This document shows, piece by piece, positions 44,322-63,923 of a DNA stretch of 64,000 nt. This DNA is from Escherichia coli (GTDB lineage Bacteria > Pseudomonadota > Gammaproteobacteria > Enterobacterales > Enterobacteriaceae). A model generated the notes under the pieces. It did not search any database and was not told the DNA's origin. It saw nothing but the letters and a program-made list of their open reading frames with translations. Made by a program: the position numbers and the translations under genes. Every line of letters starts with the position of its first letter. Position 1 is the first letter of the stretch. The stretch lies in NCBI RefSeq assembly GCF_030384885.1, contig NZ_CP128613.1; one strand, 5' to 3'.

Positions 44322-44329
44322 AGTCAGAA

Positions 44330-46667: not shown

Positions 46668-46671
46668 GTAT

Positions 46672-46770
46672 CATTCCATTTATACTCGTCATACTTCAAG
46701 TTGCATGTACTGCGACTGCGTTCGTTCACCCCAGTCACTTACTTTAGTAAGCTCCTGGGGATTCACTCGC
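46672..46770. repeat. ERIC/IRU element
   Basis: Reverse complement reads GTGAATCCCCAGGAGCTTAC.AAGTAAGTGACTGGGGTGAACGAACGCAG..ATGCAACTTGAAGTATGACGAGTATA, matching the ERIC consensus from memory. Confidence 0.65.
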
Positions 46771-46984
46771 TTGTCGCCTTCCTGCAACTCGAATTATTTA
46801 GAGTATATAAATATAAAAATCAAGAAATGGCAGACGAATCCAGGGCAAGAAAAAAAGAATTAATCCTGGAAAGGTCTGCAAAGAGTCATTGATAAAGGAT
46901 TTTTCATGATTTACCTCCTTGCAGTTTGTGGAATAAGAAAACGCGCACATATTAGGCGGGCGTTATTTTCATTGCAAGCTGGAT

Positions 46985-47437
46985 TTAGTGTTGCGGTTTA
47001 TATCGCATATGAAAATTAGTAAACCACGCTCCCCGGCATTCAACGCGCTGCTGCTTAACTGTCTGAAAACCATAACGTTCAAAAAAGGGTTTTGCGGTTA
47101 TGCTGGCATCTACCGTAAGTTCGGATTCAGACTTAATCAAAGGTTTTAACAAAGCGCTGGCAACCCCGCAGCGGTTGTATTTCGGATCAACAAATAACAT
47201 ATCGATATAATGCTCAATGCAGGTAATAAAGCCGACCAGTTGTGTATTAATAACCGCAACCCGCACTTGTGATTTCGCGAGTTTCTCTTTCCATCGATGT
47301 TCATCAATCTGCGCCCAGGCGGCAATTTGTTGTGGTGAATAATGCTGACTAGCGGTCATCGTAACCGCTCTAATAAAAATAGCGCATAGTTGCTGAAAAT
47401 CGCCAGGCTGATAGTTCCTTATTTGTATATTATTCAT
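46985..47437 (-). CDS. yafP: GNAT-family acetyltransferase
   Basis: 150-aa ORF; start overlaps dinB stop. Confidence 0.85.
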
Positions 47438-48489: not shown

Positions 48490-48503
48490 TGCTCACCTCT
48501 CAA

Positions 48504-48523
48504 TACTGGTAAAGTATACAGTG
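48504..48523 (-). promoter_or_regulatory. LexA (SOS) box of dinB
   Basis: Minus strand reads CACTGTATACTTTACCAGTA (CTGT-N8-ACAG class) 15-35 bp upstream of dinB start. Confidence 0.7.
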
Positions 48524-48559
48524 ATTTCAGAGTTTGAGAAATGCGTAAAGATTCAGCAT

Positions 48560-49138
48560 TTAACGCGTTCGCTGCGAAAGCACCTGCTGCTTATCCAGCT
48601 TTTTCACCAACGGCTGCACCACTTTATCGCCATGCTGACCAAAATATTGATACAACGTATCGGACGCGCTTTTGGTGAGCACCATAATCTCAATGCGCCG
48701 ATTGCCCGCGCTTTGTGGATTTTTGGCATCCAGCAGCATCTGGTCCGCCATTGCGCTCACCCGCGCTTCGCCCTGTAACACCGGCTGCAACTGGCGGTCC
48801 ACCGCGCCGCCGGAAAGTGCGGTGCGTTTGTCCAGCATCTGCGTGAGCGCCGTACCCTGCGCCTGCCCGCTCTTACGCTGGCTATGACGATAATCGAGCA
48901 ATTGCTGCTCCAGTTGCCCGAGATAGTGATCCGCCTGCTGCAACGTGGTGAGCTGATCGTTAAGCTGCACGCTGTAACGCTGCGGGCGAGTGGTAATCAG
49001 CGGCGAGGCCGGATATTCACTCGCCGTCGCCGGGAGCTTTTGCCGCACCGCCTGAGTGGGCGCAACGGTTGACGACGATACCGCAGCGCTATGCGCGCCG
49101 CCGGTGGCGAGTGATGAAGATGTAAGTCCGACCTGCAT
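48560..49138 (-). pseudogene. remnant ORF carrying a MotB/OmpA-type C-terminal motif (LafU/MbhA-like), probably a deletion-fusion product
   Basis: 192-aa ORF ending ..NRRIEIMVLTKS.. (OmpA-like peptidoglycan-binding signature) but lacking MotB N-terminal TM region; sits where the flagellin/motor (laf) cluster would be. Confidence 0.45.
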
Positions 49139-49154: not shown

Positions 49155-50084
49155 TTAGAGAACGCTGAACAAATTCAACTCACTCACCTTCGAGTAAGTC
49201 TTGAGGGTAGCTTCCATTGCCACTTCCAGTCCGGTAAAGGTGATCGACGCCGGGCCGTAATCGAGATCCTGCAATGAACCAATCAACTCATCATTAGAGG
49301 TAGAGATATCGGTCTGCGCATCGCTCAGCATCGACATGGTGTTTTGTGTCTCGCCGAGCGACGCAATCGAGGCGTTGAGGTCGTCCGAGGCGGTGTCCAC
49401 CACATTAACGGCGTTTTGAATATCGCTTTGTACCTGCGGATCTGCCGGGTCAACGTTAGGGTTTTGCAACTCCTGCGACAGGGCATTGAGCGTGTTGAGC
49501 ACATCTAAATTGCTGCCAAAGAAATCGCTCGCCGCCACGTTGGTGTCTACTTCGACGCCGTTCGACACCGTAGTCTGGCGATGGTCGCTGTTACCCTGAT
49601 AGCTGTAGCGATCGGTCACGCCATCACCGTCATCGTCCACCGCCACAATCGGCGGTTGATCGTTGATAGTGCCGCCAAAGACGTAATGCCCGTCTTCATC
49701 CTGATAGTTGAGCGCCGCCACCATCGATTCGGTTAGCGACTCAATATCCTGACCGAGGCTTGCCAGCGAATCGGCGGTATTGGTGCCGTTCGCTGCTTCC
49801 AGCAGGTCGTCGCGCACCGCCAGCAGGCTGTTGTTGACGCCATCAAGAATGGATTCCTGCTGGCTTAAGCCCGCCGACGCGGAGTCGATATTGCTCTGAT
49901 ACTGCTCAATCGCCGACTGCTGGCGGTTCAACTGGGTGATACGTGTGGCGGCGATAGGATCATCCGATGGCTGCAAAATTTCCTTGCCGGTTGCCATCTG
50001 CTCGACCACGTGCGCCAGTTCGCCAGAAAGATTATTAAAACTTTGCGTCATCGAGACGTAGGTTTGTTGGGTGGTTACTCGCAT
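49155..50084 (-). CDS. lfgL: flagellar hook-associated protein 3 (lateral system)
   Basis: FlgL-like N-terminus from MRVTTQQ; flagellin-type terminal helices. Confidence 0.8.
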   Translation of the reverse strand: MRVTTQQTYVSMTQSFNNLSGELAHVVEQMATGKEILQPSDDPIAATRITQLNRQQSAIEQYQSNIDSASAGLSQQESILDGVNNSLLAVRDDLLEAANGTNTADSLASLGQDIESLTESMVAALNYQDEDGHYVFGGTINDQPPIVAVDDDGDGVTDRYSYQGNSDHRQTTVSNGVEVDTNVAASDFFGSNLDVLNTLNALSQELQNPNVDPADPQVQSDIQNAVNVVDTASDDLNASIASLGETQNTMSMLSDAQTDISTSNDELIGSLQDLDYGPASITFTGLEVAMEATLKTYSKVSELNLFSVL

Positions 50085-50098
50085 TTTCGCGCTCCCGC

Positions 50099-51475
50099 TT
50101 AGCTGCACATTTCCAGCACCGAATCAAAAATCTCGGCCCCGGCGGAAATGACTTTCAGATTGGCTTCATAAATTTGTTGATAGGTGATCAGGTTCACCGC
50201 CTCTTCGTCCATGCTGACGCCGCTGACGCTGCTCTGCTGGTTTTGCGCCTCAGAATAGACATTGGACGCAGCGGTCACTTCGGTCTGGTTTTGCTGAGTG
50301 TAAATGCCAATATTGCTGATGATCGACGAGCACGCTTGCCCGACCGTCACGCTGCCGAGGTTGGCTATCTCCAGCGGCTCAGTGGAGATGTTGATCAGCG
50401 CCTGCAGGTTGTCGCTGTTGCCGCTTTCGTCCGGCGAACTGGAGAACGCCAGTTCATCGGCGGTGATATCCGGGTTAACGGTCAGCGGGCCATCGGCATT
50501 ACTGGCATCGTAAATAAACAGCGGCTCGCCGGGGTTACCGTTGAGATCATAGCCCTGCGCCAGCTGATTGTTGACCGCATCGGCGAACTGCGACGCCATG
50601 CTGTTGATGGTGTCGGTCAGCGGCGTCAGCACGTCGTTTTGATAATCAAAAAGTGCGCCTAATGAACCGCCGGTATCGGTGGTCATGGTCGAGGTCGTTC
50701 CGGCAAAGGTCAGTGTCATCGTTGGCGTGCCATCGGCGTTGGTTTCCAGCGCGATGGTCGAACTTTGCTGCCCGCTCACCAGCGGCTGACCGTTTTGCAG
50801 GGTGACGTTGTAGTTGCCCTGGTCGTCGATATTGACCTGCACATCCATCATTCCGCTGAGTTCTTCCACCATCTGATCACGAGCGTCATACAGCGCGGAG
50901 GCGTTATCACCGTTGGCTTCGGCCTGGGCGATTTGCTGGTTATAGCTGGCGATGCCGCTGGTGAGCGTATTGATTTGCGACACCATCGCCTGCTGCTGGC
51001 TGATGATTTCTGTGCTTTGCGAGTCGATGTAATCGAGCGTGTTATCGATACGCAACGACAGCGCCCCGGCTTCGCTGATCACCTGCTCGCGCAGGGCAGA
51101 ATCATCGGGGCTGGTGGTCGCTTCGTTGAGGGCCGCGAAAAAGTTATCGAACCCGCCGCTCAGGCTACTGTTATCGTCGCTCAATACCGCTTCCAGTTGC
51201 GTGAGATACCCTTGCTGGGTGTTGTAATAGCCGTAATCGCTGGCGGCATACCACACCTGATTCACCTGATACTGGTTGGAGACGCGACGAATGCTGTCCA
51301 CCTGTACACCGTTTCCGGCGCTGTTCGGCGAACCGCCGCTGGCACCGATGGTGCTGATCTCCGCCACCTGGCGGGTGTAGCCCGTGGTCATGGCGTTAGC
51401 GGTGTTTTGCGCCGTGACGTTCAGCTCCACCTGCGCCGTTGATGCGCCGCTGTAGCCGATGTTAATCATGTCCAT
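50099..51475 (-). CDS. lfgK: flagellar hook-associated protein 1 (lateral system)
   Basis: 458-aa ORF; FlgK-like N-terminus ..AQNTANAMTTGYTRQ.. Confidence 0.85.
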   Translation of the reverse strand: MDMINIGYSGASTAQVELNVTAQNTANAMTTGYTRQVAEISTIGASGGSPNSAGNGVQVDSIRRVSNQYQVNQVWYAASDYGYYNTQQGYLTQLEAVLSDDNSSLSGGFDNFFAALNEATTSPDDSALREQVISEAGALSLRIDNTLDYIDSQSTEIISQQQAMVSQINTLTSGIASYNQQIAQAEANGDNASALYDARDQMVEELSGMMDVQVNIDDQGNYNVTLQNGQPLVSGQQSSTIALETNADGTPTMTLTFAGTTSTMTTDTGGSLGALFDYQNDVLTPLTDTINSMASQFADAVNNQLAQGYDLNGNPGEPLFIYDASNADGPLTVNPDITADELAFSSSPDESGNSDNLQALINISTEPLEIANLGSVTVGQACSSIISNIGIYTQQNQTEVTAASNVYSEAQNQQSSVSGVSMDEEAVNLITYQQIYEANLKVISAGAEIFDSVLEMCS

Positions 51476-51544
51476 GTTGGATCCTTACCGGTAAATCGTG
51501 CCGGATAAAAGCGGCGTGAAGTTGGGGATTCTTAAGTTCCGTAA

Positions 51545-51895
<351 letters not shown>

Positions 51896-51896
51896 C

Positions 51897-52196
51897 TCAT
51901 TTATGCTTCGGCGACAACTGCTTCACAATCATCGCCGCGATCCCTATCCCGTGCTGCTGCGCCAGGGTGTTACACAACTCATCGTCATAAAACCCCTGCA
52001 TCATGCGCACCGAATCGCTGTTAAATGGGTTATCTTTCGAATCAAACAACTCGTTGGTTTTACGCATCTCTTTCAGCATGTTGCGTAAAAAAATCGCCTC
52101 AAACTGTTCGGCGGCCTGCTTAATATCATTGGCCTGAACCTTCGGCCCCATTAACGCATCGCTGCCGTCAATCCCGCCGCTGGCGTTGACTTTCAT
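51897..52196 (-). CDS. lfgJ: FlgJ-like rod-binding protein, short form without muramidase domain
   Basis: 99-aa ORF; ..QFEAIFLRNMLKEMRKT.. aligns with FlgJ N-terminal rod-binding domain. Confidence 0.7.
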   Translation of the reverse strand: MKVNASGGIDGSDALMGPKVQANDIKQAAEQFEAIFLRNMLKEMRKTNELFDSKDNPFNSDSVRMMQGFYDDELCNTLAQQHGIGIAAMIVKQLSPKHK

Positions 52197-53296
52197 CAGA
52201 TCACCTCCAGGTCGGCATCCAGCGCGCCCGCTTCATGCAGCGCCTGCAAAATCGACATAATGTCGTCCGGCGTTGCGCCTAAACTGTTCAGCGCATTGAC
52301 CAGCGTTTTCAGGCTGCTCGACTCCGGCAAACTCACCACGCCCGGACGGGCATGATTCACCGCGATATTGCTCTGCGGCGTTACCGCCGTACGCCCGCCC
52401 GCAAAGGCATTCGGCTGGCTGACGTTGCTGGTTTCGTTAATTGAGACGGTCAGGCTGCCGTGCGACACCGCCGCCGCGTGCAGCGCGATGCCATCGCCCA
52501 TCACCACCGTACCGGTACGCGAGTTAAACACCACGCGGGCGCGGATTTTCTCCGCCTGCACCTGCACATCATCCAGTTGCGACATAAACGCCACCCGCGC
52601 GCCGGGGCTGGTGGGCGCACGCACGGTGACGTTGGTGGAACTCTGCGCCGTGGCAATGCCGCCAAACGAAGCGTTGATCGCCGCCGCAATGTTGTTGGCG
52701 TCTTTAAACGACGGGCGTTTCAGGTTAAGCGTGATGGTGTCGCCCATCTGAAAATCGCTGGGGATTTCGCGCTCCACCGTCGCGCCATTGGGGATTAACC
52801 CGGCGGTCGGCGTATTAACCGTTACGCTCGAGCCGCTGGCCCCGGTGGCATTCATCCCGCCCACCACCACACTTCCCTGCGCCAGGGCATACACTTCGCC
52901 ATCTGCGCCGTGCAACTGGGTCAGCAGCAAGGTGCCGCCGCGAATACTTTTGGCATCGCCAATCGACGAGACGGTGACATCAATAGTCTGCCCACGCGAG
53001 TACATCGGCGGCAACGTGGCGCTCACCGCCACCGCGGCGACGTTTTTCACCTTCGGGTCGATTTTATTTGGCAACTGCACGCCAAACTGGCGCAGCATAT
53101 TGGTGATGGTCTGGTTGGTGAATTTGACCTGGTTTTTATCGCCCGTACCGTCGAGGCCGACCACCAGGCTGTAGCCGACCAGTTGGTTTTCACGCACGCC
53201 CTGTACGTTGACCAGCGACTCCAGCGATTGCGCCAGCGCCACGCCAGGTAGCGCCAGGCTTACGGCTACCATCACCGTTTTTATCCAGTTTTGCAT
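52196..53296 (-). CDS. lfgI: flagellar P-ring protein
   Basis: FlgI-like; start at Met with GGAGAG RBS giving signal peptide [22 protein letters not shown]. Confidence 0.9.
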
Positions 53297-53310
53297 TGCA
53301 CTCTCCGGCA

Positions 53311-53976
53311 TTAAATCGGGAACAGAGGATGGTTAAACAGCCGGGTCAGCCAGCCTGCGGCGTTGGCGTCGCTTAACGCGCCACGTCCGGCATAGGAGAT
53401 ACGGGCGTCGGCGATCCGCTGGGAAGAAACCGAGTTGTCATTCTGGATATCGTCGGCGCGCACCAGGCCGCTTAAGCGGATGTACTCATCGCCCTGATTG
53501 AGGGTGAGCCATTTCTCGCCGCGAATTTCCAGGATGCCGTTGGGCTGCACCGCATGGACGGAAACAGTGATCTCCCCGCGCAGACTGTTCTGCTGCTGGG
53601 ACGTGGCGCTGCCGTCAAAGTCGCGGTTGGCGTCGATGGAGCCGGAGAGGTTATTTTTGGTGTGACCAAATACCGTTGGCGCGGTGATATCGACGCTGTT
53701 GCTTTTGCCGAAATTGGTTTTCGCCTGTTTGCTCGACTGGGTCGATTCTTCGAGGATCACCGTCAGGATATCGCCCACGCGATAAGCCCGCCGATCGGCG
53801 GTTAGCGACCAGTTGTAGCCCGTTTCAAACACGCCCCCGGCACGCCCGTCTGCCGGAGGCGGCGCTTCGGTTTTCGGTGGCGCAAAGTATGCGTCGTCTT
53901 TTTTGACCAGAATGGCCTGCGATTCACACCCGCTAAGCAGGGGAAGCAGCGCCACCAGCCAGAGATAATTTTTCAC
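53311..53976 (-). CDS. lfgH: flagellar L-ring lipoprotein
   Basis: 221-aa ORF with lipobox LLSGC. Confidence 0.9.
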
Positions 53977-54045
53977 GTTCTGCCTGTTTAGTGTTGCAGG
54001 CCACGGGGTGGCCGGTTGTTTGGTGGGTTGGAGCGGGTTTGTTCC

Positions 54046-54158
54046 CCCTCACCCTAACCCTCTCCCCAAAGGGGCGAGGGGACCGATCGAGCGCGTTTTT
54101 ACATCGTGCTCCACTTTTCTCCCTCTCCCTGTGGGAGAGGGCCGGGGTGAGGGCATCA
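54046..54158. repeat. about 112-bp GC-rich palindromic intergenic repeat, copy 1
   Basis: Terminal inverted motifs CCCCTCACCC...GGGTGAGGG and internal hairpin CCCTCTCCC-TGT-GGGAGAGGG; reverse complement of copy at 61282-61392. Confidence 0.65.
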
Positions 54159-54179
54159 GGCCGCACCGCCCTTAACGCC

Positions 54180-54965
54180 TTACAGCGTCTGACTGATGTA
54201 CTGCAACATATCGTCCGCCGCCGACACCATTTTGGCGTTCATCTCGTAGGCACGTTGCACCGTAATCATCGCCACCATTTCGTTGACGATATCCACGTTC
54301 GAGCCTTCGAGCGCATTGTCCTGCAAGGTGCCAAGCCCATCTTCGCCCGGTACGCCTTCGGTCGGCTGACCGCTGGCGGCGGTTTCCAGATAGAGGTTGT
54401 CACCCTCGGCAGAAAGCCCCGCCGGGTTGGCGAAGTTGACCAGCGTCAGTTGCCCTAACTCGGTCACGTCGCTGTCGCCAGGTAAGATAGCCGTCACCGT
54501 GCCGTCCTCACCAAACGCAACATTCGTCGCCCCCGCCGGAACGTCGATTTCCGGCTGTAACGGCAAGCCCTGCGAGTTGGTCAGCACGCCGTCGGCGTTC
54601 ACCTGCAAGTTGCCGTCGCGGGTATAGGCGATATCGCCGTTGGCCTTTTGCACCTGCAAAAACCCCTGCCCCATAATGGCGACATTCATCGCGTTGTCGG
54701 TGGTTTCGACGTTGCCTTCGGTAAAGGTTTTCTGAGTGCCGACAATGCGCACGCCGCTACCGAATTGCAGCCCGGTCGGCATGATGTTGTTCTGGTCGAG
54801 CATCGCGCCCGGCGCTTCCTGGGTCTGGTAGAACAGATCCTGAAACATCACCCGGTCGCGCTTGAAGCCGGTGGTGTTAACGTTGGCGATGTTGTTGGCA
54901 ATCGCGCTCATTTCAGCATCCTGCGCCGAGAGGCCGGTTTTGCTGATCCATAATGCTGCGTTCAT
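54180..54965 (-). CDS. lfgG: flagellar distal rod protein
   Basis: 261 aa from MNAALWISKTGL; ORF-track extension upstream runs into a REP element. Confidence 0.85.
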   Translation of the reverse strand: MNAALWISKTGLSAQDAEMSAIANNIANVNTTGFKRDRVMFQDLFYQTQEAPGAMLDQNNIMPTGLQFGSGVRIVGTQKTFTEGNVETTDNAMNVAIMGQGFLQVQKANGDIAYTRDGNLQVNADGVLTNSQGLPLQPEIDVPAGATNVAFGEDGTVTAILPGDSDVTELGQLTLVNFANPAGLSAEGDNLYLETAASGQPTEGVPGEDGLGTLQDNALEGSNVDIVNEMVAMITVQRAYEMNAKMVSAADDMLQYISQTL

Positions 54966-54984
54966 GGTGGTAAATTCCGTGTTA

Positions 54985-55140
<156 letters not shown>

Positions 55141-55143
55141 CGG

Positions 55144-55881
55144 TTACGAGCCGCGCAATAAGCGGTTGCCCGCGTCGCTGATATCTTCGGCGGTTTTCAT
55201 CATTTTGATCTGCGCTTCAAACTGGCGGTTCATGGCGATGGACGACATCATTTCGCTCACCGCCGAGACGTTGCTGCCCTCGAGAAAACCGCCGCTGACT
55301 TTGATGTTTTCATCACGCTGGGCCGGAACGCCGTCGCTAGTCACCAGCATCCCTTCAGGATTTTTCGCCAGGTTAGCAACCGGGATATCCACCAGCTTCA
55401 GGCGGTCGATATCCATCGTGGCGGTCACGTCACCGTCATCGGGCGTCACCGACAGCGTGCCGTCGCTGCCAAACGAGGCAATGGCGTTCGGCGGCAGAAT
55501 GATCGGGCCGTTATCCCCCAGTACCAGATTGCCGTCGATGGTCAGTTGCCCCTGATCGTCCTGCTGAATGTTGCCGTTGCGGGTATAAACTTCGTTGCCG
55601 TTTTTATCCTGCACCGCAATGTAACCCGCCCCCTGAATCGCCACGTCCAGCGGGCGTTCGGTTTTCTCCGCCACACCCGTGCTGTCGTTCACGCCGCTGG
55701 CCCCTTCCTGCGCCATATAGCGCGTGTCGAAGCCGCCGCCTTTCACCTTGTCGTTGGTCGCCATCGCCATATCGGCGCGAAAACCGTTGGTGTTGACGTT
55801 CGCCAGGTTGTTGGCGCTAATTTGCTGCTCGTACAACGTCTGAGAAGCCCCGCTCAGGGCGGTATAAATCAAGCGATCCAT
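55144..55881 (-). CDS. lfgF: flagellar proximal rod protein
   Basis: 245-aa FlgF-like ORF; start overlaps lfgE stop. Confidence 0.9.
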   Translation of the reverse strand: MDRLIYTALSGASQTLYEQQISANNLANVNTNGFRADMAMATNDKVKGGGFDTRYMAQEGASGVNDSTGVAEKTERPLDVAIQGAGYIAVQDKNGNEVYTRNGNIQQDDQGQLTIDGNLVLGDNGPIILPPNAIASFGSDGTLSVTPDDGDVTATMDIDRLKLVDIPVANLAKNPEGMLVTSDGVPAQRDENIKVSGGFLEGSNVSAVSEMMSSIAMNRQFEAQIKMMKTAEDISDAGNRLLRGS

Positions 55882-57083
55882 TACATTGCCTGGAACAGCG
55901 CGTCATCGAGCTGTGTGCTGGTGGCGATAACTTTGGTGTTGGCCTGATAGTTACGCTGGGCGGTCATCAGGTTAACCAGTTCGCTGGTGATATCGACGTT
56001 AGAGCTTTCGAGCACACCGGACGACAGCGTGCCGCAGGTGCCGGAGCCGGGAACGCCAATCAGTGGCGTGCCGGATTCCCCGGTTTGTACCCATGCGGTG
56101 CCGCTCACTGCCTCCAGGCCGTTTTCATTCGGGAAAGTCGCCAGCACCACTTGGCCCTGCAACATGCGCTCGCCGTTGCTGTAGGTGGCGTAAACTTTGC
56201 CATCGTCATCAACCTGCACACCGTTTTGCGTGGCGGAAGCGTAACCGTTGGCGGAGTTGGTGGTGACAGAAAATTCAGAACCGTATTGCGTACAGGTGGA
56301 GTAATCGACGGTCAAATCGATGGGCGCGGCGGCGTCGGTCTGAAACTCAATGGTCTGCGGCGTAGTTGGCGAGGTCAGTTTTCCGGTATTCGGGTCGAAG
56401 GTTAAGGTCGTCGCCGGAACACCAGTCTGCTGCTGACCGTCGAAGGTGTACTGCACTTCCCAGGTGTTATCGCTGGTTTTGGTGAAGTACTGGCATACCG
56501 AGTGTTCGTTACCTAATGAGTCATACACCGTGGTGGTGTAGCTGTCGGTGTACGAACTGCTGTTGGTCGGATCGAACGGCACGGTAGTGCGGTCGATAGC
56601 GTCGTCACTGGCATCGAAGTTGGCGGTAAAGGTCAGGCTGCTGCTGGCCTGCGCCGGGATATTGCCGGTTTTGATCTGGATATCCGTCACCGTACCGGTT
56701 TGCAAAGTGCCGCTGTCATCGACCGGATAGCCCTGCAAATAAGCGCCCGAGGCGTTAACGATATAGCCGTCTTTGTCCGTTTCAAACGATCCGGCGCGGG
56801 TATAAGAGATGTTGCCTGCGCTGTCGCACATCACAAAAAAGCCGTCGTCGTTAATCGCCAGATCCAGCGCATTACCGGTGGAGACCAGCGAACCGCCGCG
56901 CGAAATACTTTGCGCGGTGCCCGCCACGCTGACGCCCATTGCCTGGCTTCCGGCATACATGGCTGAAAACTGGGTAGTCATCGACTTATACCCCACCGTT
57001 CCGGCGTTAGCGATGTTGTTACTGATCCCGTCCAGCTGTTCGTTAACGGCATTCAGCCCCGTTGCGGCAATTTCATAACTCAT
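55881..57083 (-). CDS. lfgE: flagellar hook protein
   Basis: 400-aa FlgE-like ORF. Confidence 0.9.
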   Translation of the reverse strand: MSYEIAATGLNAVNEQLDGISNNIANAGTVGYKSMTTQFSAMYAGSQAMGVSVAGTAQSISRGGSLVSTGNALDLAINDDGFFVMCDSAGNISYTRAGSFETDKDGYIVNASGAYLQGYPVDDSGTLQTGTVTDIQIKTGNIPAQASSSLTFTANFDASDDAIDRTTVPFDPTNSSSYTDSYTTTVYDSLGNEHSVCQYFTKTSDNTWEVQYTFDGQQQTGVPATTLTFDPNTGKLTSPTTPQTIEFQTDAAAPIDLTVDYSTCTQYGSEFSVTTNSANGYASATQNGVQVDDDGKVYATYSNGERMLQGQVVLATFPNENGLEAVSGTAWVQTGESGTPLIGVPGSGTCGTLSSGVLESSNVDITSELVNLMTAQRNYQANTKVIATSTQLDDALFQAM

Positions 57084-57106
57084 TGTTTCTTCCTGTTAAT
57101 TGATTC

Positions 57107-57820
57107 TTACGCCACATCACTGTCGGCATCGGGTACGCCAAACTGGCTAATCATGGTGAACGGCACTTCGCCCACACCTGCAACGTTGAGCACCGGAGAG
57201 CTGCCGTCGAGCGGGATACGTACATCCTCCACTTCGCCGGAGACTTCAATCGGTACCTCTTCTTCCCCGGTGTTGGTCACCACCGAAACGTCGTAATCAC
57301 CCGGCGGGATGCCGTAATCCGCCGGATTAATCGAGAAATCAACCTGGCCTGGTCCAACCGACGAACTCCCTTCCGGGATCAGCGAGACGGTGTAGTCATC
57401 GCCCGCGGCATCGGTAAAGTGGAGTTCGGCGGTGGTACAGGCGTCGTCCAGTGTGGCGCGACCGTTAATGGTCTGGTCACTCACCTGCAAGGCGGTGGTC
57501 TGCACCATAATGTCGTCGCCCACCAGGTTGCCGAGCGCCATCACCTGAATGTTGCTCATCAGCACCGCGTTGGTATTGGCCTGCACGCTCATCTCTTCCA
57601 TCATCGCCACCTGCGCCATCGACGAAAGCTGGTCGATATATTCGGTGGCATCGGTCGGGTCGGTCGGGTCCTGGTTTTGGATCTCGGCGACAAACAGCGT
57701 CAGGAAAGTATCGACGGGCGAGCTATCGCTGCTGCTTGTCGTGTCGCTGGCCGCCACGTTGTTGCTTTCCGCCGTGGCGGTCGGCTGCGGCGATTGCGCA
57801 TTCAGCGCCAGGGTATTCAT
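57107..57820 (-). CDS. lfgD: flagellar hook capping/assembly protein
   Basis: 237-aa FlgD-like ORF. Confidence 0.85.
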   Translation of the reverse strand: MNTLALNAQSPQPTATAESNNVAASDTTSSSDSSPVDTFLTLFVAEIQNQDPTDPTDATEYIDQLSSMAQVAMMEEMSVQANTNAVLMSNIQVMALGNLVGDDIMVQTTALQVSDQTINGRATLDDACTTAELHFTDAAGDDYTVSLIPEGSSSVGPGQVDFSINPADYGIPPGDYDVSVVTNTGEEEVPIEVSGEVEDVRIPLDGSSPVLNVAGVGEVPFTMISQFGVPDADSDVA

Positions 57821-58251
57821 CAGGCTTCTCCCAGTTTCAGCAGGCTTTGCTGCATACTTTTCACGTTGTTGAGCACATCGACATTGGTTTCAAAATCGCG
57901 CGAAGCCGACATCATGTCCGCCATCTGTTCCACCACGTTGACGTCGGGATACCAGACATCGCCGTTGGCATCCGCCAGCGGCGAATGCGGTTCATAGCGT
58001 TTCAGCGCCCCGCCGGTTTGCAGCACGTCCTGCACCTGCACGCTGGCGCCGTCAATGGCATGACGATGCGTTCCCGCCAGCAAACTGTGGTGATACACCG
58101 CGGCAAACACCGGGCTGCGTGCTTTATACGCCTGCGCCTCGCTGCTGGCGGGCGCATTGGCATTCGCCAGGTTACTGGCGACGGTATTCAGACGCAGCGT
58201 TTGCGCCGTCATCGCCGAGCCGGAAATCTGATAGATATCAGTAAATGACAT
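57820..58251 (-). CDS. lfgC: flagellar proximal rod protein
   Basis: 143-aa FlgC-like ORF. Confidence 0.9.
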   Translation of the reverse strand: MSFTDIYQISGSAMTAQTLRLNTVASNLANANAPASSEAQAYKARSPVFAAVYHHSLLAGTHRHAIDGASVQVQDVLQTGGALKRYEPHSPLADANGDVWYPDVNVVEQMADMMSASRDFETNVDVLNNVKSMQQSLLKLGEA

Positions 58252-58253
58252 GC

Positions 58254-58589
58254 TTATTTCCCTTCAATGGCCTCTCTGATACCGCTGATTTGCAGATTCA
58301 GAAAGGTCAGACTGCTTTGATAATCCATACTATTTTGTGAAAACCGCGCCTGTTCGCTGTTCAGTTCCACGGTGTTACCATCTTCCGACGGCTGCATCGG
58401 CACGCGGTACTGCACATCCACCGCCGCGTTATTTGCCCGTTGCATCTCCCTGGCAAAATCAATATCTTTAGCCTTGAAATTTGGCGTATCGACATTCGCC
58501 AGATTCGCAGTCAGTAGCTCGGTCCTCTCAAGACGTAACTTCACTGCCTGCGGATGTACTCCCAATGCTTGCTGAAAACTGATCCCCAT
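58254..58589 (-). CDS. lfgB: flagellar proximal rod protein
   Basis: FlgB-like; start at MGISFQQ because a sigma-54 promoter occupies the longer ORF's first codons. Confidence 0.8.
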   Translation of the reverse strand: MGISFQQALGVHPQAVKLRLERTELLTANLANVDTPNFKAKDIDFAREMQRANNAAVDVQYRVPMQPSEDGNTVELNSEQARFSQNSMDYQSSLTFLNLQISGIREAIEGK

Positions 58590-58624
58590 TTCTTGCGTCA
58601 CTCCCGCTTCAATCCGCATACGCT

Positions 58625-58641
58625 AAGCAATCGCTGTGCCA
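58625..58641 (-). promoter_or_regulatory. sigma-54 (-24/-12) promoter for lfgB operon
   Basis: Minus strand reads TGGCAC-AGCGA-TTGCT, exact -24 GG / -12 GC spacing. Confidence 0.55.
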
Positions 58642-58670
58642 ATTTTTAAGTGACTGATGAGAAAGGGTTT

Positions 58671-59408
58671 ATGAGTTTTCAATTTTGCAGGCGGAAGTTG
58701 TATTTCCTCCTGGCGCTGGCCTTACCGGGCTACGCCGCCGTCCATCCCGTGCAACATAGCGCGCGGGAACAAGTCAACGCCCAGGTGCTGAATGCCGCGA
58801 GCCAGCAGATTGAATCGCTGGCGCAACAGCGGCAGTGGCATGACTATCGCTACACCTTTAAGGTCTACATTCCCTCGCAGATTGCGACCGCCGCGCCCTG
58901 CGCTACGGCCCCCGGCGTCACGCTGACTTCGCCTGCGGAAATCGCTCTCAACCGGATGAACTTCACCGTCAGTTGCCCGCAAAGCTGGCAGATGAACGTT
59001 GCGGTGCGCCCGGATGTTCTGGTGCCGGTGGTGATGGCGAAGTCACTGGTTGCCCGCGATACGCCGCTCACGGCAAATGATGTGGAGCTGAAGCCCTACA
59101 ACGTCAGCGCCCAGCGGCGGGATGTGCTGATGGATCTCAATGAAGCGATTGGTTTAAGCAGCAAACATGCCCTGCAACCAGGCAGGCCGCTTACCAAAGA
59201 AGAACTGGTTTCGCCAGTGCTGATCGAGCGCGATCAGCCGGTGATGATTGTTTACCAGAGCGCGGGGATCACCGCCTCGATGCCCGGCGTGGCGCTGAAA
59301 AATGGTCGCAAAGGGGAAATGGTGAAAGTACGTAACGCCAGCAGTCAGCGGGTCATTAGCGCAATAGTGGCGGAAAGCGGCGTGGTGACAACGGTAAGCG
59401 CGGAGTAA
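58671..59408 (+). CDS. lfgA: flagellar P-ring assembly chaperone
   Basis: FlgA-like ORF, signal peptide from internal Met; divergent from lfgB. Confidence 0.75.
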   Translation: MSFQFCRRKLYFLLALALPGYAAVHPVQHSAREQVNAQVLNAASQQIESLAQQRQWHDYRYTFKVYIPSQIATAAPCATAPGVTLTSPAEIALNRMNFTVSCPQSWQMNVAVRPDVLVPVVMAKSLVARDTPLTANDVELKPYNVSAQRRDVLMDLNEAIGLSSKHALQPGRPLTKEELVSPVLIERDQPVMIVYQSAGITASMPGVALKNGRKGEMVKVRNASSQRVISAIVAESGVVTTVSAE

Positions 59409-59488
59409 TTTACGCAGGCGATTAAAGTTTTGCCGCCTGTTAACCGCTTTACCGGAGTAACACACCTTCAAACAGAGACGAGGTTGCG

Positions 59489-59764
59489 ATGAAAATCACC
59501 CCGACTATGCCAGGCAATCGCCCGACAGCCACAACGGCAGGCTCCAGCCAGCCGCGCAAAACTACGGCGACCACCACGACGCTCAGCGCCGACGACATTA
59601 CCCAGGCGGGATTGCAGTCTGCCCAGCAAACGCTGAACGACCAGCAAGAGAGCGATATCGACAGCGATAAAGTGGCGCAAATGCAGGCGATGCTGGCGTC
59701 CGGCAGCCTGCAAGTGGACACCGAACAGTTAGCCAGCGACATGCTGAGTTTTTTCCAGAACTAA
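59489..59764 (+). CDS. lfgM: anti-sigma-28 factor FlgM-like
   Basis: 91-aa ORF, Thr/Gln-rich, C-terminal amphipathic helix pattern. Confidence 0.7.
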   Translation: MKITPTMPGNRPTATTAGSSQPRKTTATTTTLSADDITQAGLQSAQQTLNDQQESDIDSDKVAQMQAMLASGSLQVDTEQLASDMLSFFQN

Positions 59765-59776
59765 GAGGCCGATGAA

Positions 59777-60205
59777 GTGAGTATCCGGTTACAACAGGTG
59801 AAGGCGTTGTTGCAGGGAATTCGTGACGACGACGCACTGTACGATTCCCTGCGCGAACTTCTCCAGCGTCAGCGGATCTGCATGATTCGCCGCGCCAGTG
59901 AAGAGTTGATGGCGGTAAACGACGAGATAACGCAGCACTATGAGCAGTTGCATGGGCATAGCCATCAGCGGCACAGCCTGCTGCAACTGCTGGGTGTCAG
60001 CGTAAATCGTGACGGTCTGGCGCAGGTGTTTGCCTGGCTTCCGGCGGTACAAAAAGCGGCAGCACAACAGTTGTGGCAACGCCTGGAGCAAAAAACGGAA
60101 CGCTGCAAAGCCTATAACGATAAAAACGGCGAGCTGTTGATTCGTCAGTATGAATTTATTCAGTCTTTTTTAGGCAGCGAAGCGGATTTTCTGTATCAGG
60201 AATAA
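59777..60205 (+). CDS. lfgN: FlgN-like export chaperone
   Basis: 142-aa ORF, GTG start, follows lfgM. Confidence 0.65.
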   Translation: MSIRLQQVKALLQGIRDDDALYDSLRELLQRQRICMIRRASEELMAVNDEITQHYEQLHGHSHQRHSLLQLLGVSVNRDGLAQVFAWLPAVQKAAAQQLWQRLEQKTERCKAYNDKNGELLIRQYEFIQSFLGSEADFLYQE

Positions 60206-60331
60206 CGCGAATACCTTCCCCATAGCGGAAACGGATTTTCCGCCTGATTTCCAATCCTTTGTTTTTGATGAAAAAAAATCCCGGCACGCTTATTGCACAT
60301 CCTGCACAGCATTAAAGACTGGAAGCCACCT

Positions 60332-61261
60332 ATGAGTTTTATTGAATGTTACGAACCGGAATATGTGCGCAATTTTATGGCGCAATATCCCGATTCGCCT
60401 TTATACGTCCGCAAGGTGTGGAAGAATGAGATTCGCCAGAGCCTGGCATTGACCGATATTGCCAGTTGCAAAGCAGTGCTCAACGATGCCAGGGCCTTTG
60501 AATTACAGCTTACCTATCGCCCTGTGGAAGAAAATGCCGCAGCACTCTCCGCGCGCGATGCGATAGTAAACCAGATAATTTTGAGCACCCTCACGCTCCC
60601 GGATTTAACCCCAGAGCTTTCACTGTATGCCGTCGGTATCCTGCTCTCCCGCGCCAATAAAATGCCGGGCAGAGACGGCGACACTCTTGCCCGGCTGACA
60701 ACGCTGCCGCAGGCGCTGGCCGATCACGCACAAAAAGGCACGCTACAGGCACAGTTCGCCCAGCTACCGCCCGTGCCACAGCTGGCGCGCCAACTGGTGA
60801 CACTGCTCGGCAGTTGTGCGTTTGACTGGTCGATTCTGCCAGAAAGCCCGCGCAAAGCCTCGCTACCGTTGCAGGTGACTTTGCTGACGCTGCACGACGC
60901 CAACAGCGAAGCCCTGTTACAGCATCAGCTTCAGACGCAGTGGCAAACCACCTGGCAACAGCATTTTGCCACCGCGCCGTGGATGATGCGTAACTGGCTG
61001 ATTTACCGCGTTTACCACGATGTGATTGGGCAGACTGACGGGGCGGATTATTGCCCGCTGGTGTGCGATTTTTACCTCATCCGCACGTTAATCAGTTTAT
61101 GGACGCTGGATGATTCACCGCTGCGGCAGGAGGATATTTTCGCCCTCTTCGCGGTGTTTGAACGCTGGCGAGTGAGTGAAAATGCGCTGTTAGTTCGCCA
61201 GCAAATTCAGTCGTTATGTGCCGCCGAGCCGCTGCTTTCAGCGTTTTCGCTGCTTACATGA
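60332..61261 (+). CDS. hypothetical protein associated with lateral flagellar locus
   Basis: ORF 60293-61261 (TTG-initiated in track); first ATG at 60332; no motif. Confidence 0.45.
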   Translation: MSFIECYEPEYVRNFMAQYPDSPLYVRKVWKNEIRQSLALTDIASCKAVLNDARAFELQLTYRPVEENAAALSARDAIVNQIILSTLTLPDLTPELSLYAVGILLSRANKMPGRDGDTLARLTTLPQALADHAQKGTLQAQFAQLPPVPQLARQLVTLLGSCAFDWSILPESPRKASLPLQVTLLTLHDANSEALLQHQLQTQWQTTWQQHFATAPWMMRNWLIYRVYHDVIGQTDGADYCPLVCDFYLIRTLISLWTLDDSPLRQEDIFALFAVFERWRVSENALLVRQQIQSLCAAEPLLSAFSLLT

Positions 61262-61281
61262 ATCGCTCTGTGCGCGCTGAT

Positions 61282-61392
61282 GCCCCTCACCCCGGCCCTC
61301 TCCCACAGGGAGAGGGAGAAAACCTGCGCCCAATTCAGCACCACGCTCGATCGGTCCCCTCGCCCCTTCGGGGAGAGGGTTAGGGTGAGGGG
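61282..61392. repeat. about 112-bp GC-rich palindromic intergenic repeat, copy 2 (inverted relative to copy 1)
   Basis: Reverse complement aligns with 54046-54158. Confidence 0.65.
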
Positions 61393-61451
61393 CAAAGCGC
61401 GCATAGCGCCTCCTAACCCATCACATTCACCCACTAACTCACCCAAACACC

Positions 61452-63923
61452 ATGCCAACACCAAGCATCATCAAAACACTCGCCACCCACCGCGAAAAAC
61501 CGTTCGTCAGCGTCGTCACGCCAACCTGGAACCGCGGCGCATTCCTCCCGTACCTGCTCTATATGTACCGCTATCAGAACTACCCGGCAGACCGCCGCGA
61601 ACTGATCATCCTCGACGACTCACCGCAAAGCCATCAACACATCATCGACCGCCTGACCAATGGCACACCGGAAGCCTTTAACATCCGCTACATCCATCAC
61701 CCGGAAAAACTGCCGCTGGGCAAAAAACGCAATATGCTCAACGAACTGGCGAGCGGCGAATATATCCTCTGCATGGATGACGACGACTACTACCCGGCAG
61801 ATAAAATCTCCTGGACCATCGCCATGATGCAAAAACACCGGGCGCTGATCTCTGGTTCCGACCAGATCCCCATCTGGTACAGCCATATCAACCGCATCTT
61901 TCAAAGCCGCAGCTTTGGCCCGCATAACATCCTCAACGGCACCTTTTGTTATCACCGTAACTACCTGAAAAAGCACCGTTACGATGACGATTGCAATTTA
62001 GGCGAAGAGAAAAGTTTCACCGACAATTTCAGCGTTAACCCGCTACAACTGCCCAGCGAACGCACCATTTTGTGTATCTCGCATAGCCACAACACCTTTG
62101 ATAAAGATTTTATTCTTGGGGCCAGCACGCCTGTAAATGCCGAACTGAGCGATATCGTCAGCGATCCGCTGCTACGCAATGCTTATCTGAGTCTGCATAA
62201 CGCCACGCATCACCAGGGGATCAACCATCAGGCGATCGATCAGATAGTTGTTGTGAATCTGGATAAACGCCCGGATCGTTTACGGCAGATCCGTGAAGAG
62301 CTGGCATTGCTGCATATTCCGCCTGAAAAAATTACCCGCCTTGCCGCCTGTGAAGATGAAAACGGTCAACGGGGCCGCCGCCTGTCGCACTTGCAGGCGC
62401 TACGCCTGGCGCAACAGCACAGCTGGCAAAATTACCTGCTGCTGGAAGATGACGCGGTTATTCTCAAGCAGGAGAAACATATTCAGGTACTGAACACGCT
62501 GCTGGCGAGCCTGGCGAAAATCCCCTGGCAGGTGATGATCCTTGGTGGCGAAATTTCGCAAGGAACAATGCTAAAAAGCCTGCCGGGGCTGGTGCACGCG
62601 CGGGACTGCCGCAAAGTGTGCGCTTATCTGGTGAACAGTCGTTACTACCCACAACTGGCGCAGCAGATGGGCAACGATGAGCACTCGCTGGAAGACGGCT
62701 GGCAGCCACTGCTACGCGCCGACAAATGGCTGGCCTGTTACCCGAGTATTTGTTACCAGCGACCGGGCTTTAGCGATATCGAGAAAAAAGCGACCGATAA
62801 CATCATTCACTATTTCAATAAGTTACCCATAGCCACAAAGCCATCCGCATTACCCATCGCCGACACCATCGGCTTTTTAATGGAAACCTCATTCCACTAC
62901 GCGCTCTATCGCCCAATCATCACCGCCCTACAGGCGCAGGGGCAAAGTTGCACACTGGTAATCAACGATCGCGTGTTTAAACCGTTTCTGGATGAAATGC
63001 TGGCGACGCTAAAAAGCATCGACGATCCGCAGCTTAAAGGTATGCGCTTGTCTGAAATGCAGGCACACGGTCAGCGGGTGAAATGCCTGGTCAGCCCCTA
63101 CCACACACCCGCGCTCAATGGCCTTTCACCCGTGAACATCCGCGCCATGTACGGCTTAGCCAAAGAAACGTGGAACCACGCCGACTGGAACCGTTTTTAT
63201 CAACGCATTTTGTGTTACAGCCACTACAGCCAGCAGGCGCTGGCGCACCTCAGCAGCGCGAAAGTGGTCGGCAACCCACGCTTCGACGCCTGGCATAACG
63301 GCACGTTTGACCGCGCCCTGCCGGAAAATATCCAACCCGATTCCCGTAAACCTACGGTGCTCTACGCCCCCACGTTTGGCGCATTAAGCTCCCTGCCCCA
63401 CTGGGCAGAAAAATTGGGGCGCTTGAGCGGTGATGTGAACCTGATTTGCAAACTGCACCACGGTACCTGCTCGCGCCCGGAAGAAGCCGCATCGCTAACC
63501 CAGGCACGCAGGCATTTAAAACAGTGCACCAACTCAGCCCAGCACACACTGGCGCAGCTGGCAAAGGCCGATTACGTGCTCACCGATAACAGCGGCTTTA
63601 TTTTCGATGCTATCCACGTTGATAAGCGAGTGATCCTGCTCGACTTTCCGGGTATGACGGAACTGCTCGACGGTGAGAAAAGTTACTCCACGGCGGAGAG
63701 CGCTGACCAGCGGATTCGCGAAATATTGCCGGTGGCTCATGATATGGCTGAGCTGCGTTACTTATTGTCAGAGGCGTTTGACTGGGGGGCGGTACAGGCG
63801 CGGCTTACGGAGATTCGCCATCACTATTGTGACGCGTTTATGGATGGCAAGGCGGGAGAACGGGCGGCGATGGTGGTTGTGGAGGCGCTGGCGGGCAAGG
63901 AACCGTCAGGAATATGTCGATAA
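61452..63923 (+). CDS. multidomain glycosyltransferase (GT2-like, GT25-like and TagF-like glycerophosphotransferase modules)
   Basis: 823-aa ORF; N-terminal VVTPTWNRG..LDDSP..CMDDDD (GT-A/DXD); middle VVNLDKRPDRL (GT25-like); C-terminal region TagB/F-like. Confidence 0.65.
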   Translation: MPTPSIIKTLATHREKPFVSVVTPTWNRGAFLPYLLYMYRYQNYPADRRELIILDDSPQSHQHIIDRLTNGTPEAFNIRYIHHPEKLPLGKKRNMLNELASGEYILCMDDDDYYPADKISWTIAMMQKHRALISGSDQIPIWYSHINRIFQSRSFGPHNILNGTFCYHRNYLKKHRYDDDCNLGEEKSFTDNFSVNPLQLPSERTILCISHSHNTFDKDFILGASTPVNAELSDIVSDPLLRNAYLSLHNATHHQGINHQAIDQIVVVNLDKRPDRLRQIREELALLHIPPEKITRLAACEDENGQRGRRLSHLQALRLAQQHSWQNYLLLEDDAVILKQEKHIQVLNTLLASLAKIPWQVMILGGEISQGTMLKSLPGLVHARDCRKVCAYLVNSRYYPQLAQQMGNDEHSLEDGWQPLLRADKWLACYPSICYQRPGFSDIEKKATDNIIHYFNKLPIATKPSALPIADTIGFLMETSFHYALYRPIITALQAQGQSCTLVINDRVFKPFLDEMLATLKSIDDPQLKGMRLSEMQAHGQRVKCLVSPYHTPALNGLSPVNIRAMYGLAKETWNHADWNRFYQRILCYSHYSQQALAHLSSAKVVGNPRFDAWHNGTFDRALPENIQPDSRKPTVLYAPTFGALSSLPHWAEKLGRLSGDVNLICKLHHGTCSRPEEAASLTQARRHLKQCTNSAQHTLAQLAKADYVLTDNSGFIFDAIHVDKRVILLDFPGMTELLDGEKSYSTAESADQRIREILPVAHDMAELRYLLSEAFDWGAVQARLTEIRHHYCDAFMDGKAGERAAMVVVEALAGKEPSGICR

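Follow-up and report, generated by a model that had tools for sequence, protein, structure and literature searches.

Why do a large glycosyltransferase gene and a smaller companion lie beside flagellar chaperone genes in a stretch of Escherichia coli DNA that holds no flagellin gene, and what would they modify? We consider it fairly probable, at roughly two in three, that the pair is a flagellin-modification operon from variable region 1 (VR1) of the Flag-2 lateral flagellar locus, still intact but stranded by the loss of its cognate substrate. All coordinates refer to the window, the whole 64-kb stretch of DNA that was analysed.

Both genes lie on the + strand. The first (60332..61261) encodes a 309-aa LafV-like protein matching the C-terminal part of FliB, with an ATG start at 60332 (the earliest start allowed by the ORF finder is a TTG at 60293). 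The second (61452..63923), backed by its open reading frame, homologues and an AlphaFold2 model, encodes an 823-aa three-module transferase. The two directly follow flagellar genes, in the order lfgA (58650-59408) and lfgM (59489-59764), both recognized by Pfam/NCBIfam, and lfgN (59777..60205, + strand), which encodes a FlgN-type export chaperone (Pfam FlgN, E 1.6e-19). Full-length homologues of both proteins occur in Escherichia, Citrobacter, Enterobacter, Atlantibacter, Leminorella and Plesiomonas, dN/dS relative to E. coli 042 is 0.11 for the transferase and 0.185 for the partner (dS ~0.27), and the AlphaFold2 models are confident (pLDDT 88 and 93, respectively). Thus, both are real genes, intact and conserved, and chance open reading frames are excluded.

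The pair belongs to Flag-2 VR1, between lfgN and lfiJ, and is an already described pair with a putative role in decorating flagellin. The Flag-2 locus of E. coli 042 is colinear with the window at 91.7% DNA identity, its gene order on the lfgN flank is the same, and the pair region is 92-95% identical to E. coli loci. In 042 the order runs flgA-flgM-flgN, then the VR1 genes (EC042_RS01390-01400) for a hypothetical protein or 'lysine-N-methylase', a glycosyltransferase and a cytidylyltransferase, and then fliJ; its Flag-2 system is considered non-functional because of a frameshift in lfgC. The lfgN side of the placement is seen directly in the window, and the lfiJ side is implied by colinearity with 042 up to the window end, 77 bp past the stop codon of the 823-aa gene, beyond which the tagD-like gene and lfiJ lie. 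In their comparison of Enterobacterales, De Maayer et al. (2020, PMC6993521) place GT2-1, LafV and TagD in VR1, treat Flag-2 loci as hotspots for cargo genes, and read the locus as flagellin glycosylation with a teichoic-acid-like component. The window shares the post-lfgN position, the gene order and the glycosylation reading, and the 823-aa protein probably corresponds to their common type 'GT2-1'. The suspected link to flagellin modification is upheld by the VR1 position in every related locus examined, by a sigma-54-type promoter like that before lfgB, and by the same reading in the paper. The differences are that the available passages class the transferase simply as GT2 and list TagB-like proteins separately, whereas the window protein joins GT2, GT25-like and TagF-like modules; that they treat LafV as a methylase orthologue, whereas the window LafV lacks the iron-sulfur motif; and that the window Flag-2 has its flagellin half deleted and its tagD-like gene past the window end.

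The composite build proposed for the 823-aa protein (GT-A/DXD, GT25-like and TagF-like) is supported by a Pfam GT2 match, homologues, motifs and fold comparison, and a failure of domain searches to support the three modules did not occur. Domain annotation alone carried part of this proposal: in the whole protein GT2 is the only family above its Pfam threshold, while GT25 and TagF fall below theirs and rest on homologues, motifs and fold. The protein is 93% identical to an E. coli 'glycosyltransferase' (P0001) and is modelled as three domains. Module 1 (aa ~15-250; 61494..62201, + strand) has a GT-A fold and belongs to family GT2, matching PF00535 over residues 20-134 (E 2.2e-17; 63.9 bits against a cutoff of 23.3), as do 61 of 61 homologues. 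Its DD and DxD motif (DDDD) is kept, with D55 and D109-D111 present in 65/65 homologues and D56 and D112 in 64/65, and its profile matches solved GT2 enzymes such as PglI-like proteins and TarS.

Module 2 (aa ~260-460; 62229..62831, + strand) is a second GT-A domain with a GT25-type fold and an EDD metal motif. The whole protein is not listed for PF01755 (GT25; gathering score 24 bits) at E<=1, and the module scanned alone reaches 14.7 bits (E 0.028). Two homologues (P0085 and P0087) pass the threshold over the equivalent region with 26.9 and 29.1 bits, a match at E<=0.01 is seen in 9 of 61 homologues, and the motifs NLDxRxDR, SH and EDD (332-334) are kept in all three-module homologues. Because sequence-profile searches of the PDB with the whole protein and the middle module gave GT2 relatives alone for module 1 and no credible match for module 2, the GT25 call rests on Pfam matches of distant homologues, motifs and fold.

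The top Foldseek matches of the whole model are to human COLGALT1/GLT25D1 (PDB 9evj, 9evk, 8zgc; E 1e-17), over ~550 aligned columns that would cover modules 1 and 2. Both proteins carry a tandem of two GT-A domains, and the second COLGALT1 domain is of GT25 type with EDD in place of the DxD metal motif (PMC12003778), the triplet found at residues 332-334 here. However, sequence identity is only 12-14%, COLGALT1 has no GT-B module, and its domain 1 is structural and its domain 2 catalytic, whereas domain 1 of the 823-aa protein, with its invariant DDDD, looks catalytic. Because COLGALT1, the nearest relative by structure, acts on a modified lysine (collagen hydroxylysine), a lysine-derived acceptor is conceivable, but nothing at the 823-aa protein points to one. 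One bolder possibility, which we regard as a long shot, is that LafV and this tandem GT-A enzyme of COLGALT1 type depend on each other, making up a flagellin glycosylation system of two proteins and of an uncharacterised kind. LafV would recognise flagellin, and the enzyme's product would be a sugar(-sugar)-phospho-glycerol that caps a Gram-negative flagellin in a teichoic-acid-like manner, perhaps on a lysine-derived residue rather than Ser/Thr; a still weaker corollary is another substrate in this lafA-less strain.

Module 3 (aa ~470-815; 62859..63896, + strand) adopts a GT-B fold nearest to TagF-family structures, retains donor-side motifs, and has as its nearest known family the TagF-like CDP-alditol phosphotransferases (TagF, TarL and Bcs3; PF04464). 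The 823-aa protein scores 14.5 bits (E 0.017) against PF04464 Glyphos_transf over residues 605-728, below the gathering score of 22.1, while E<=0.01 is reached by 24 of 61 homologues (the best at 1.1e-8) and the module profile matches TarL (E 0.0028). The canonical WHG motif with its catalytic histidine (TagF H444, TarL H300) is not clearly retained. Both MAFFT and hhalign via a stand-alone orthologue place Y567 in the histidine column, but hhalign without the orthologue gives H551, so the alignments disagree; across 51 homologues the Y567 column holds Y34/H6/A5/P3, the H551 position is Tyr in the family consensus, and H482 and H576 are conserved near the WHG-equivalent region.

A glycerol-phosphate component of the glycan is plausible. 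The gene next downstream in 042 matches the glycerol-3-phosphate cytidylyltransferase model TIGR01518 (E 5e-33), but at 113.7 bits against an equivalog cutoff of 165.4, which leaves room for a CDP donor other than CDP-glycerol. A cytidylyltransferase gene is present in loci L002, L003, L005 and L006 and absent from L007, L008 and L009, and Atlantibacter has a three-module protein yet no cytidylyltransferase at the locus.

By structure, module 3 is nearest to polymerases (TagF, TarL and the multi-domain capsule polymerase Bcs3), which raises the question of whether the 823-aa protein polymerizes a free teichoic-acid-like or capsule-like glycopolymer of sugar-phosphate-glycerol repeats, carried as cargo in VR1, and modifies no protein. 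Its multi-module build of glycosyltransferase and TagF-like parts resembles group 2 capsule polymerases, one homologue has module 3 swapped for a KpsC/KpsS-type Capsule_synth domain, and Flag-2 loci are described as cargo hotspots (PMC6993521). However, genes for export or for a lipid anchor (ABC transporter, KpsMT or flippase) are lacking beside it in the loci examined, the transferase is strictly paired with a FliB_C protein behind a flagellar-type promoter, and a TagF-like enzyme of Clostridioides difficile acts on flagellin-bound GlcNAc and not in polymer synthesis. We therefore judge a polymerase role quite unlikely.

The C. difficile Type A system offers a demonstrated parallel for flagellin decoration. 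There, the glycosyltransferase FgtA places a sugar on flagellin and the TagF-like FtaD, a CDP-N-methylthreonine:GlcNAc phosphotransferase, adds a phospho-linked group from a CDP donor (bioRxiv 10.64898/2026.02.12.704994), with a nucleotidyltransferase gene within the cluster. The likeness to the 823-aa protein is one of logic and not of sequence-tested membership: FgtA and FtaD are separate proteins, whereas the corresponding activities would be fused here, and the donor is CDP-(N-methyl)threonine, whereas CDP-glycerol is the candidate in E. coli. In related loci, the TagF-like part is fused to the glycosyltransferase in Escherichia, Citrobacter and Atlantibacter. In Paramixta and Pseudescherichia it is encoded separately, by a neighbouring gene beside one for a CTP-transferase, and the copy in Pseudescherichia is a stand-alone orthologue of the fused module. 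This pattern of fused and split modules is a Rosetta-stone argument for sugar and phospho-alcohol addition in one pathway.

The companion protein is LafV, resembling just the C-terminal part of FliB; the original prediction had not recognized it as such. It matches the NCBIfam flagellin lysine-N-methylase model NF038110 with E 8e-11, at 42.1 bits against a curated cutoff of 85 and across profile positions 107-361 of 373 only (its 042 orthologue scores 44.2 bits). LafV thus corresponds to the last two thirds of the FliB model, and both proteins belong to flagellar loci; unlike Salmonella FliB, it is missing an N-terminal stretch of ~100 profile positions that holds the CX4CX3CC [4Fe-4S] motif, and it adjoins a glycosyltransferase in the loci examined. 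Salmonella fliB is not known to be paired with a glycosyltransferase. That FliB match, together with the lysine-N-methylase/LafV naming in RefSeq and in the literature (PMC6993521), would fit a genuine flagellin lysine-N-methylase, such that the pair makes two independent modifications, methylation and glycosylation. This is unlikely. Apart from the low score and partial coverage of the FliB model, a regular-expression search finds no CX4CX3CC in the 309-aa ORF or in any frame of the upstream DNA (60206-60340), and the cysteines of the protein fall at positions 6, 46, 162, 241, 245 and 296 only. In FliB this N-terminal motif binds a [4Fe-4S] cluster essential to methyl transfer (PMC8598068). 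Additionally, the 78 homologues found are all either ~310 aa long or shorter fragments; those of full length, uniformly 307-315 aa, carry FliB_C only (precomputed PF27117). As the iron-sulfur motif needed by FliB is missing, the 'lysine-N-methylase' annotation is doubtful, and the propagated label is probably wrong for LafV.

We also considered whether the partner could be an N-terminally truncated fliB pseudogene. This was rejected: its length is the same across genera, its model is compact and confident, its dN/dS is low, and upstream there is no coding remnant of the Cys motif. The model (pTM 0.91) has no solved structural relative by Foldseek (best E 0.46), so no function can be read from its fold.

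A sigma-54-type promoter motif (GGCAC-N5-TTGCA; 60283..60297, + strand) lies 35 bp upstream of the LafV-like start codon and may serve as the promoter of the pair. The window holds two matches to this motif against 0.4 expected, the other (58626-58640, - strand) lying just upstream of lfgB, and a match ~45-60 bp before the FliB_C gene recurs in E. coli 042, E. coli R32_14_1F, Citrobacter gillenii and Atlantibacter hermannii. Scans for sigma-70 promoters and terminators found nothing over background. We suggest that the pair would be transcribed with other LafK-class lateral flagellar genes, and that it would normally modify LafA, the lateral flagellin, while this is still in the cytoplasm awaiting export. 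One or two sugars would be transferred from nucleotide sugars by the GT2 module and, probably, by the GT25-like module as well. The TagF-like module would then attach an alcohol through a phosphate, drawing on a CDP-activated donor. The likeliest such donor is CDP-glycerol, which would be supplied by the TagD-like cytidylyltransferase whose gene lies just downstream in relatives. Because LafV keeps the C-terminal part of FliB alone and lacks the iron-sulfur motif, a flagellin-binding or accessory role is more likely for it than lysine methylation.

The expected absence of a flagellin gene nearby proved correct: none lies within the 64-kb window, because the segment from lafW into lafU is deleted. 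The order is lfgL, a lafW'-'lafU fusion ORF (48560..49138, - strand) that replaces lafA and the rest of cluster 3, and dinB. The N-terminal 126 aa of the fusion match an 042 protein encoded beside lfgL and the C-terminal 58 aa match LafU positions 240-297, which puts the junction near 48760. The ORF marks a deletion that removed lafA, the filament cap, chaperone, sigma-28 factor and stator genes, and the pair is thus most likely a still-intact remnant that has no cognate substrate. The junction occurs in 0 of 5,426 complete E. coli genomes, and an exact junction search among GTDB representative genomes of 100,044 species found nothing. Additionally, E. coli 2013C-4282 matches the flanks at 99.9-100% identity yet has another Flag-2 deletion, that of K-12 type, which points to very recent events.

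The prediction that the transferase may now act on another substrate found no support. In such re-use the enzyme, with lafA gone, would decorate the primary flagellin FliC, some other protein of the surface, or a component of the LPS or capsule. Consistent with this, the pair and the neighbouring lfg genes are free of stop codons, the sigma-54-type motif is intact, and a Plesiomonas homologue sits outside a flagellar variable region, so the link between the enzyme family and Flag-2 is not a strict one. However, intact genes are expected anyway if the deletion is recent, dN/dS against 042 mostly reflects time before the deletion, and expression would require LafK/sigma-54, which are outside what the window covers. 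In E. coli the gene is also almost confined to lafA carriers: among the 5,426 complete genomes the glycosyltransferase region is present in 1,277 and lafA in 1,278. These nearly equal counts make a stranded remnant the simpler reading, and we give re-use only a small chance. In the window the pair itself and all lfg genes that remain are intact, a state that is also compatible with continued use.

As a genome feature the pair is ordinary, being carried by about a quarter of complete E. coli genomes, and the feature is known, since flagellin glycosylation with a teichoic-acid-like component has already been proposed in comparative papers. Three points add to what has been published and may help in designing an experiment: the protein classed as 'GT2' consists of three fused transferase modules that are split, swapped or degenerate in other genera; the methylase label of LafV is probably wrong, given the missing motif; and LafV is strictly coupled to the transferase, a FliB_C gene adjoining it in 7 of 7 Flag-2 loci examined.

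The two genes of the pair are separated by a 108-bp repeat element with inverted ends (61284..61391, no strand assigned), whereas ~47 bp separates them in Citrobacter loci. Its terminal motif, CCCTCACCC-N3-CCCTCTCCC, has four copies in the window against 0.03 expected, arranged as two inverted pairs (54046-54153 and 61284-61391). Megablast of the repeat region also finds matches in 4,718 E. coli genomes, against 1,277 with the locus itself, which identifies the element as dispersed.

We propose, at a probability of roughly 0.65, that the genes following lfgN belong to an operon dedicated to the lateral flagellin LafA: the transferase and its partner would decorate LafA with one or more sugars, a CDP-derived phospho-alcohol, probably glycerol-phosphate, would be added too, and the operon would now be orphaned, LafA having been lost from this genome. 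The stretch is Escherichia coli chromosome, in which genes of the second (lateral) flagellar system, Flag-2, occupy 49155-60205, with lfgL-K-J-I-H-G-F-E-D-C-B on the minus strand and lfgA, lfgM and lfgN on the plus strand. Two plus-strand open reading frames (ORFs) lie downstream of lfgN just as the original prediction stated, one of 309 aa (LafV; 60332-61261) and, after it, one of 823 aa (the three-module transferase; 61452-63923). For both, full-length homologues exist across several genera of enterobacteria, dN/dS against E. coli 042 is low (0.185 for the 309-aa and 0.11 for the 823-aa ORF, at a dS of ~0.27), and the AlphaFold2 models are confident (pLDDT 93 and 88, respectively). Thus, both are real genes. 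The window ends 77 bp past the transferase stop codon, ~68 bp before the expected start of a cytidylyltransferase gene.

This region is Flag-2 variable region 1 (VR1), between lfiJ and lfgN, as described in a comparative survey (De Maayer et al. 2020, PMC6993521). The survey records GT2-1, the commonest VR1 glycosyltransferase, in 222 strains, TagD in 235 strains and LafV in 342 of 592 loci, and proposes for VR1 that flagellin is glycosylated and methylated and receives a teichoic-acid-like component; thus, the feature is already known at the comparative-genomic level. We found no experiments on VR1 modification genes in the literature. The nearest demonstrated mechanism is that of the Clostridioides difficile Type A flagellin glycan, in which FgtA attaches GlcNAc, after which the TagF-like FtaD uses a CDP-activated donor to add N-methyl-phosphothreonine (bioRxiv 10.64898/2026.02.12.704994). 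Our analysis goes beyond the literature in dissecting the transferase into three modules with split, fused and swapped variants, in recognizing a COLGALT1-like tandem GT-A architecture, and in finding that LafV has no Fe-S motif.

The three-module reading of the 823-aa protein withstood the domain searches proposed as a means of refuting it, with a direct threshold-passing match for module 1 only, and with modules 2 and 3 supported by homologues, by motifs and by fold. The GT2/GT-A assignment is clear for module 1 (aa ~15-250; Pfam E 2e-17), where D55, D56 and D109-D112 are essentially invariant in homologues. A second GT-A domain forms module 2 (aa ~260-460). It matches Pfam GT25 below threshold (14.7 bits, E 0.028), and does so only in a scan of this domain by itself; the same family exceeds its gathering score in the equivalent region of two Plesiomonas-type homologues (P0085 and P0087) and matches 9 of 61 homologues (E<=0.01). 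The top Foldseek match to the whole model was human collagen galactosyltransferase COLGALT1/GLT25D1 (E 1e-17, ~550 aligned columns), in which a GT-A and a GT25 domain stand in tandem.

Module 2 retains NLDxRxDR, SH and EDD motifs, the last being the unusual metal motif in the catalytic GT25 domain of COLGALT1 (PMC12003778). EDD is present in every homologue with a TagF-like module and is degenerate (for example DAA, HSQ or DSR) in the two-module homologues of ~460-480 aa. In our homologue alignment (A5), the GT25-like domain of the two-module proteins, which include those from loci L003, L006 and L009, has lost both NLDxRxDR and EDD and is probably non-catalytic. This would be the mirror image of COLGALT1, where it is the first domain that is structural.

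A GT-B domain makes up module 3 (aa ~470-815). The 823-aa protein stays below the Pfam Glyphos_transf threshold (E 0.017); the family matches 24 of 61 homologues, with values down to 1e-8, and a module 3 profile run against PDB sequences had TarL as its best match (E 0.0028). Donor-side motifs (VGNPRFD, YAPT, KLHH and TDxSxxxFD) align to TagF/TarL. The WHG motif, home of the catalytic histidine (H444 in TagF), is not clearly kept, and the histidine position corresponds to Y567 by one alignment and H551 by another.

We compared 9 loci in total. E. coli 042 shares the arrangement of the window at 91.7% identity, in the order flgN, 309-aa protein, 823-aa glycosyltransferase, 134-aa cytidylyltransferase and then fliJ, and its cytidylyltransferase best matches the glycerol-3-phosphate cytidylyltransferase model TIGR01518 (E 5e-33, under the equivalog cutoff). 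The TagF-like module is fused into a three-module transferase in E. coli 042 and R32_14_1F and in Citrobacter gillenii, all with a cytidylyltransferase in the locus, and in Atlantibacter hermannii, which has none. In Paramixta manurensis and Pseudescherichia vulneris the transferase has two modules, the TagF-like protein is encoded by a separate neighbouring gene (in Pseudescherichia, a stand-alone orthologue of the fused module) and a cytidylyltransferase is present. Capsule_synth replaces the TagF-like module beside the two-module core in a Citrobacter-like contig (L007), and an Enterobacter-type locus (L009) has a two-module transferase and no TagF-like component; neither has a cytidylyltransferase. 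We argue from this split and fused pattern that sugar transfer and phospho-alcohol transfer act in one pathway. Additionally, a FliB_C gene adjoins the transferase in 7/7 Flag-2 loci examined.

That gene is the partner ORF, LafV. The NCBIfam flagellin lysine-N-methylase model matches LafV at E 8e-11, over just profile positions 107-361 of 373, and scores 42 bits where the cutoff is 85. Salmonella FliB, a flagellin lysine-N-methyltransferase, depends for methyl transfer on a [4Fe-4S] cluster bound by its N-terminal CX4CX3CC motif (PMC8598068); CX4CX3CC occurs neither in the LafV ORF nor in any frame of the upstream DNA. Thus, the RefSeq name 'lysine-N-methylase' is doubtful, and LafV would more likely play an accessory part, for example in recognizing flagellin. 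The 78 LafV homologues found all measure 307-315 aa or are shorter fragments, and the full-length ones carry precomputed Pfam PF27117, elsewhere labelled 'FliB_C'. A broken gene is ruled out by the constant length across genera, the compact model (pTM 0.91) and purifying selection. We found no solved structural relative of the LafV model.

The absence of a nearby flagellin gene was correctly noted, and is explained by a deletion. In 042, the genes after lfgL encode a 325-aa protein, a toxin-antitoxin pair and a regulator; next come lafA, fliD, fliS and fliK, and then a FliA-type sigma factor, motA, lafU and dinB. Here, a 192-aa lafW'-'lafU fusion ORF (48560-49138, minus strand) lies after lfgL and before dinB; its residues 1-126 correspond to the 325-aa protein of 042, and its last 58 to the end of LafU. 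The fusion thus indicates a deletion, with its junction near 48760, that removed flagellin, cap, chaperones, sigma-28 and stator. The genes lost from Flag-2 cluster 3 are lafA, the fliD/S/K-like genes, sigma-28, motA and most of lafU. None of 5,426 complete E. coli genomes contains this junction, nor does any GTDB representative genome. The deletion is distinct from the K-12-type lfhA'-'lafU deletion, a common one that the otherwise near-identical strain 2013C-4282 carries. Among complete E. coli genomes, 1,277 hold the transferase region and 1,278 hold lafA.

The proposed link of the pair to flagellin modification holds, and we have no support for the suggestion that it now acts on a new substrate. 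The pair is most simply read as a remnant that was stranded recently, rather than as an enzyme with a new substrate. The remaining genes are all intact, as expected for a recent event, and so do not discriminate between the two.

The proBA region is 100% identical to 2013C-4282 and 95-99% identical to most E. coli. The segment yafP-dinB-lafU' is 99.9% identical to the same strain (locus L010; window 36311-48761 compared), and the retained Flag-2 genes reach just 92-95% identity to any E. coli copy. This difference suggests either that deletions arose independently and very recently or that the Flag-2 segment was imported by recombination. Additionally, dinB (47434-48489, minus strand) is followed directly by yafP (46985-47437, minus strand); the yafN-yafO toxin-antitoxin pair that separates these two genes in K-12 is absent here.

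A sigma-54-type motif, GGCAC-N5-TTGCW, matches twice in the 64-kb window, at 58626-58640 (minus strand), just upstream of lfgB, and at 60283-60297 (plus strand; GGCAC-N5-TTGCA), 35 bp ahead of the LafV start codon. The latter is kept in Escherichia, Citrobacter and Atlantibacter, and both positions, before lfgB and before the LafV-transferase pair, are conserved in related loci. As a sequence motif, its placement fits co-regulation of the pair with the lateral flagellar genes.

An intergenic element of ~108 bp with inverted ends (CCCTCACCC-N3-CCCTCTCCC) occurs in two opposite-orientation copies, at 54046-54153 in the lfgG-lfgH intergenic region, upstream of lfgG, and at 61284-61391 between lafV and the transferase gene. 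It appears to be dispersed in E. coli, since 4,718 genomes match the query and just 1,277 hold the locus. Its in-frame translation gives the 'LTLTLSPKGRGD / ALSHREREK' peptides of spurious ORFs.

Elsewhere in the window, a prophage remnant adjoins proA (~23000-36106), with a DUF6602 protein (23352-24695), portal (26628-27623), large terminase (27817-29550) and integrase (34943-36106), and is partly of low GC (40-41% at 22-26 kb). A 1,417-aa inverse autotransporter of the intimin/invasin type with many Big_1/Invasin_D3 repeats (1992-6245, minus strand) and a CS1/Tcf-type pilus usher-like protein (15926-18451, plus strand) are ordinary E. coli adhesin loci.
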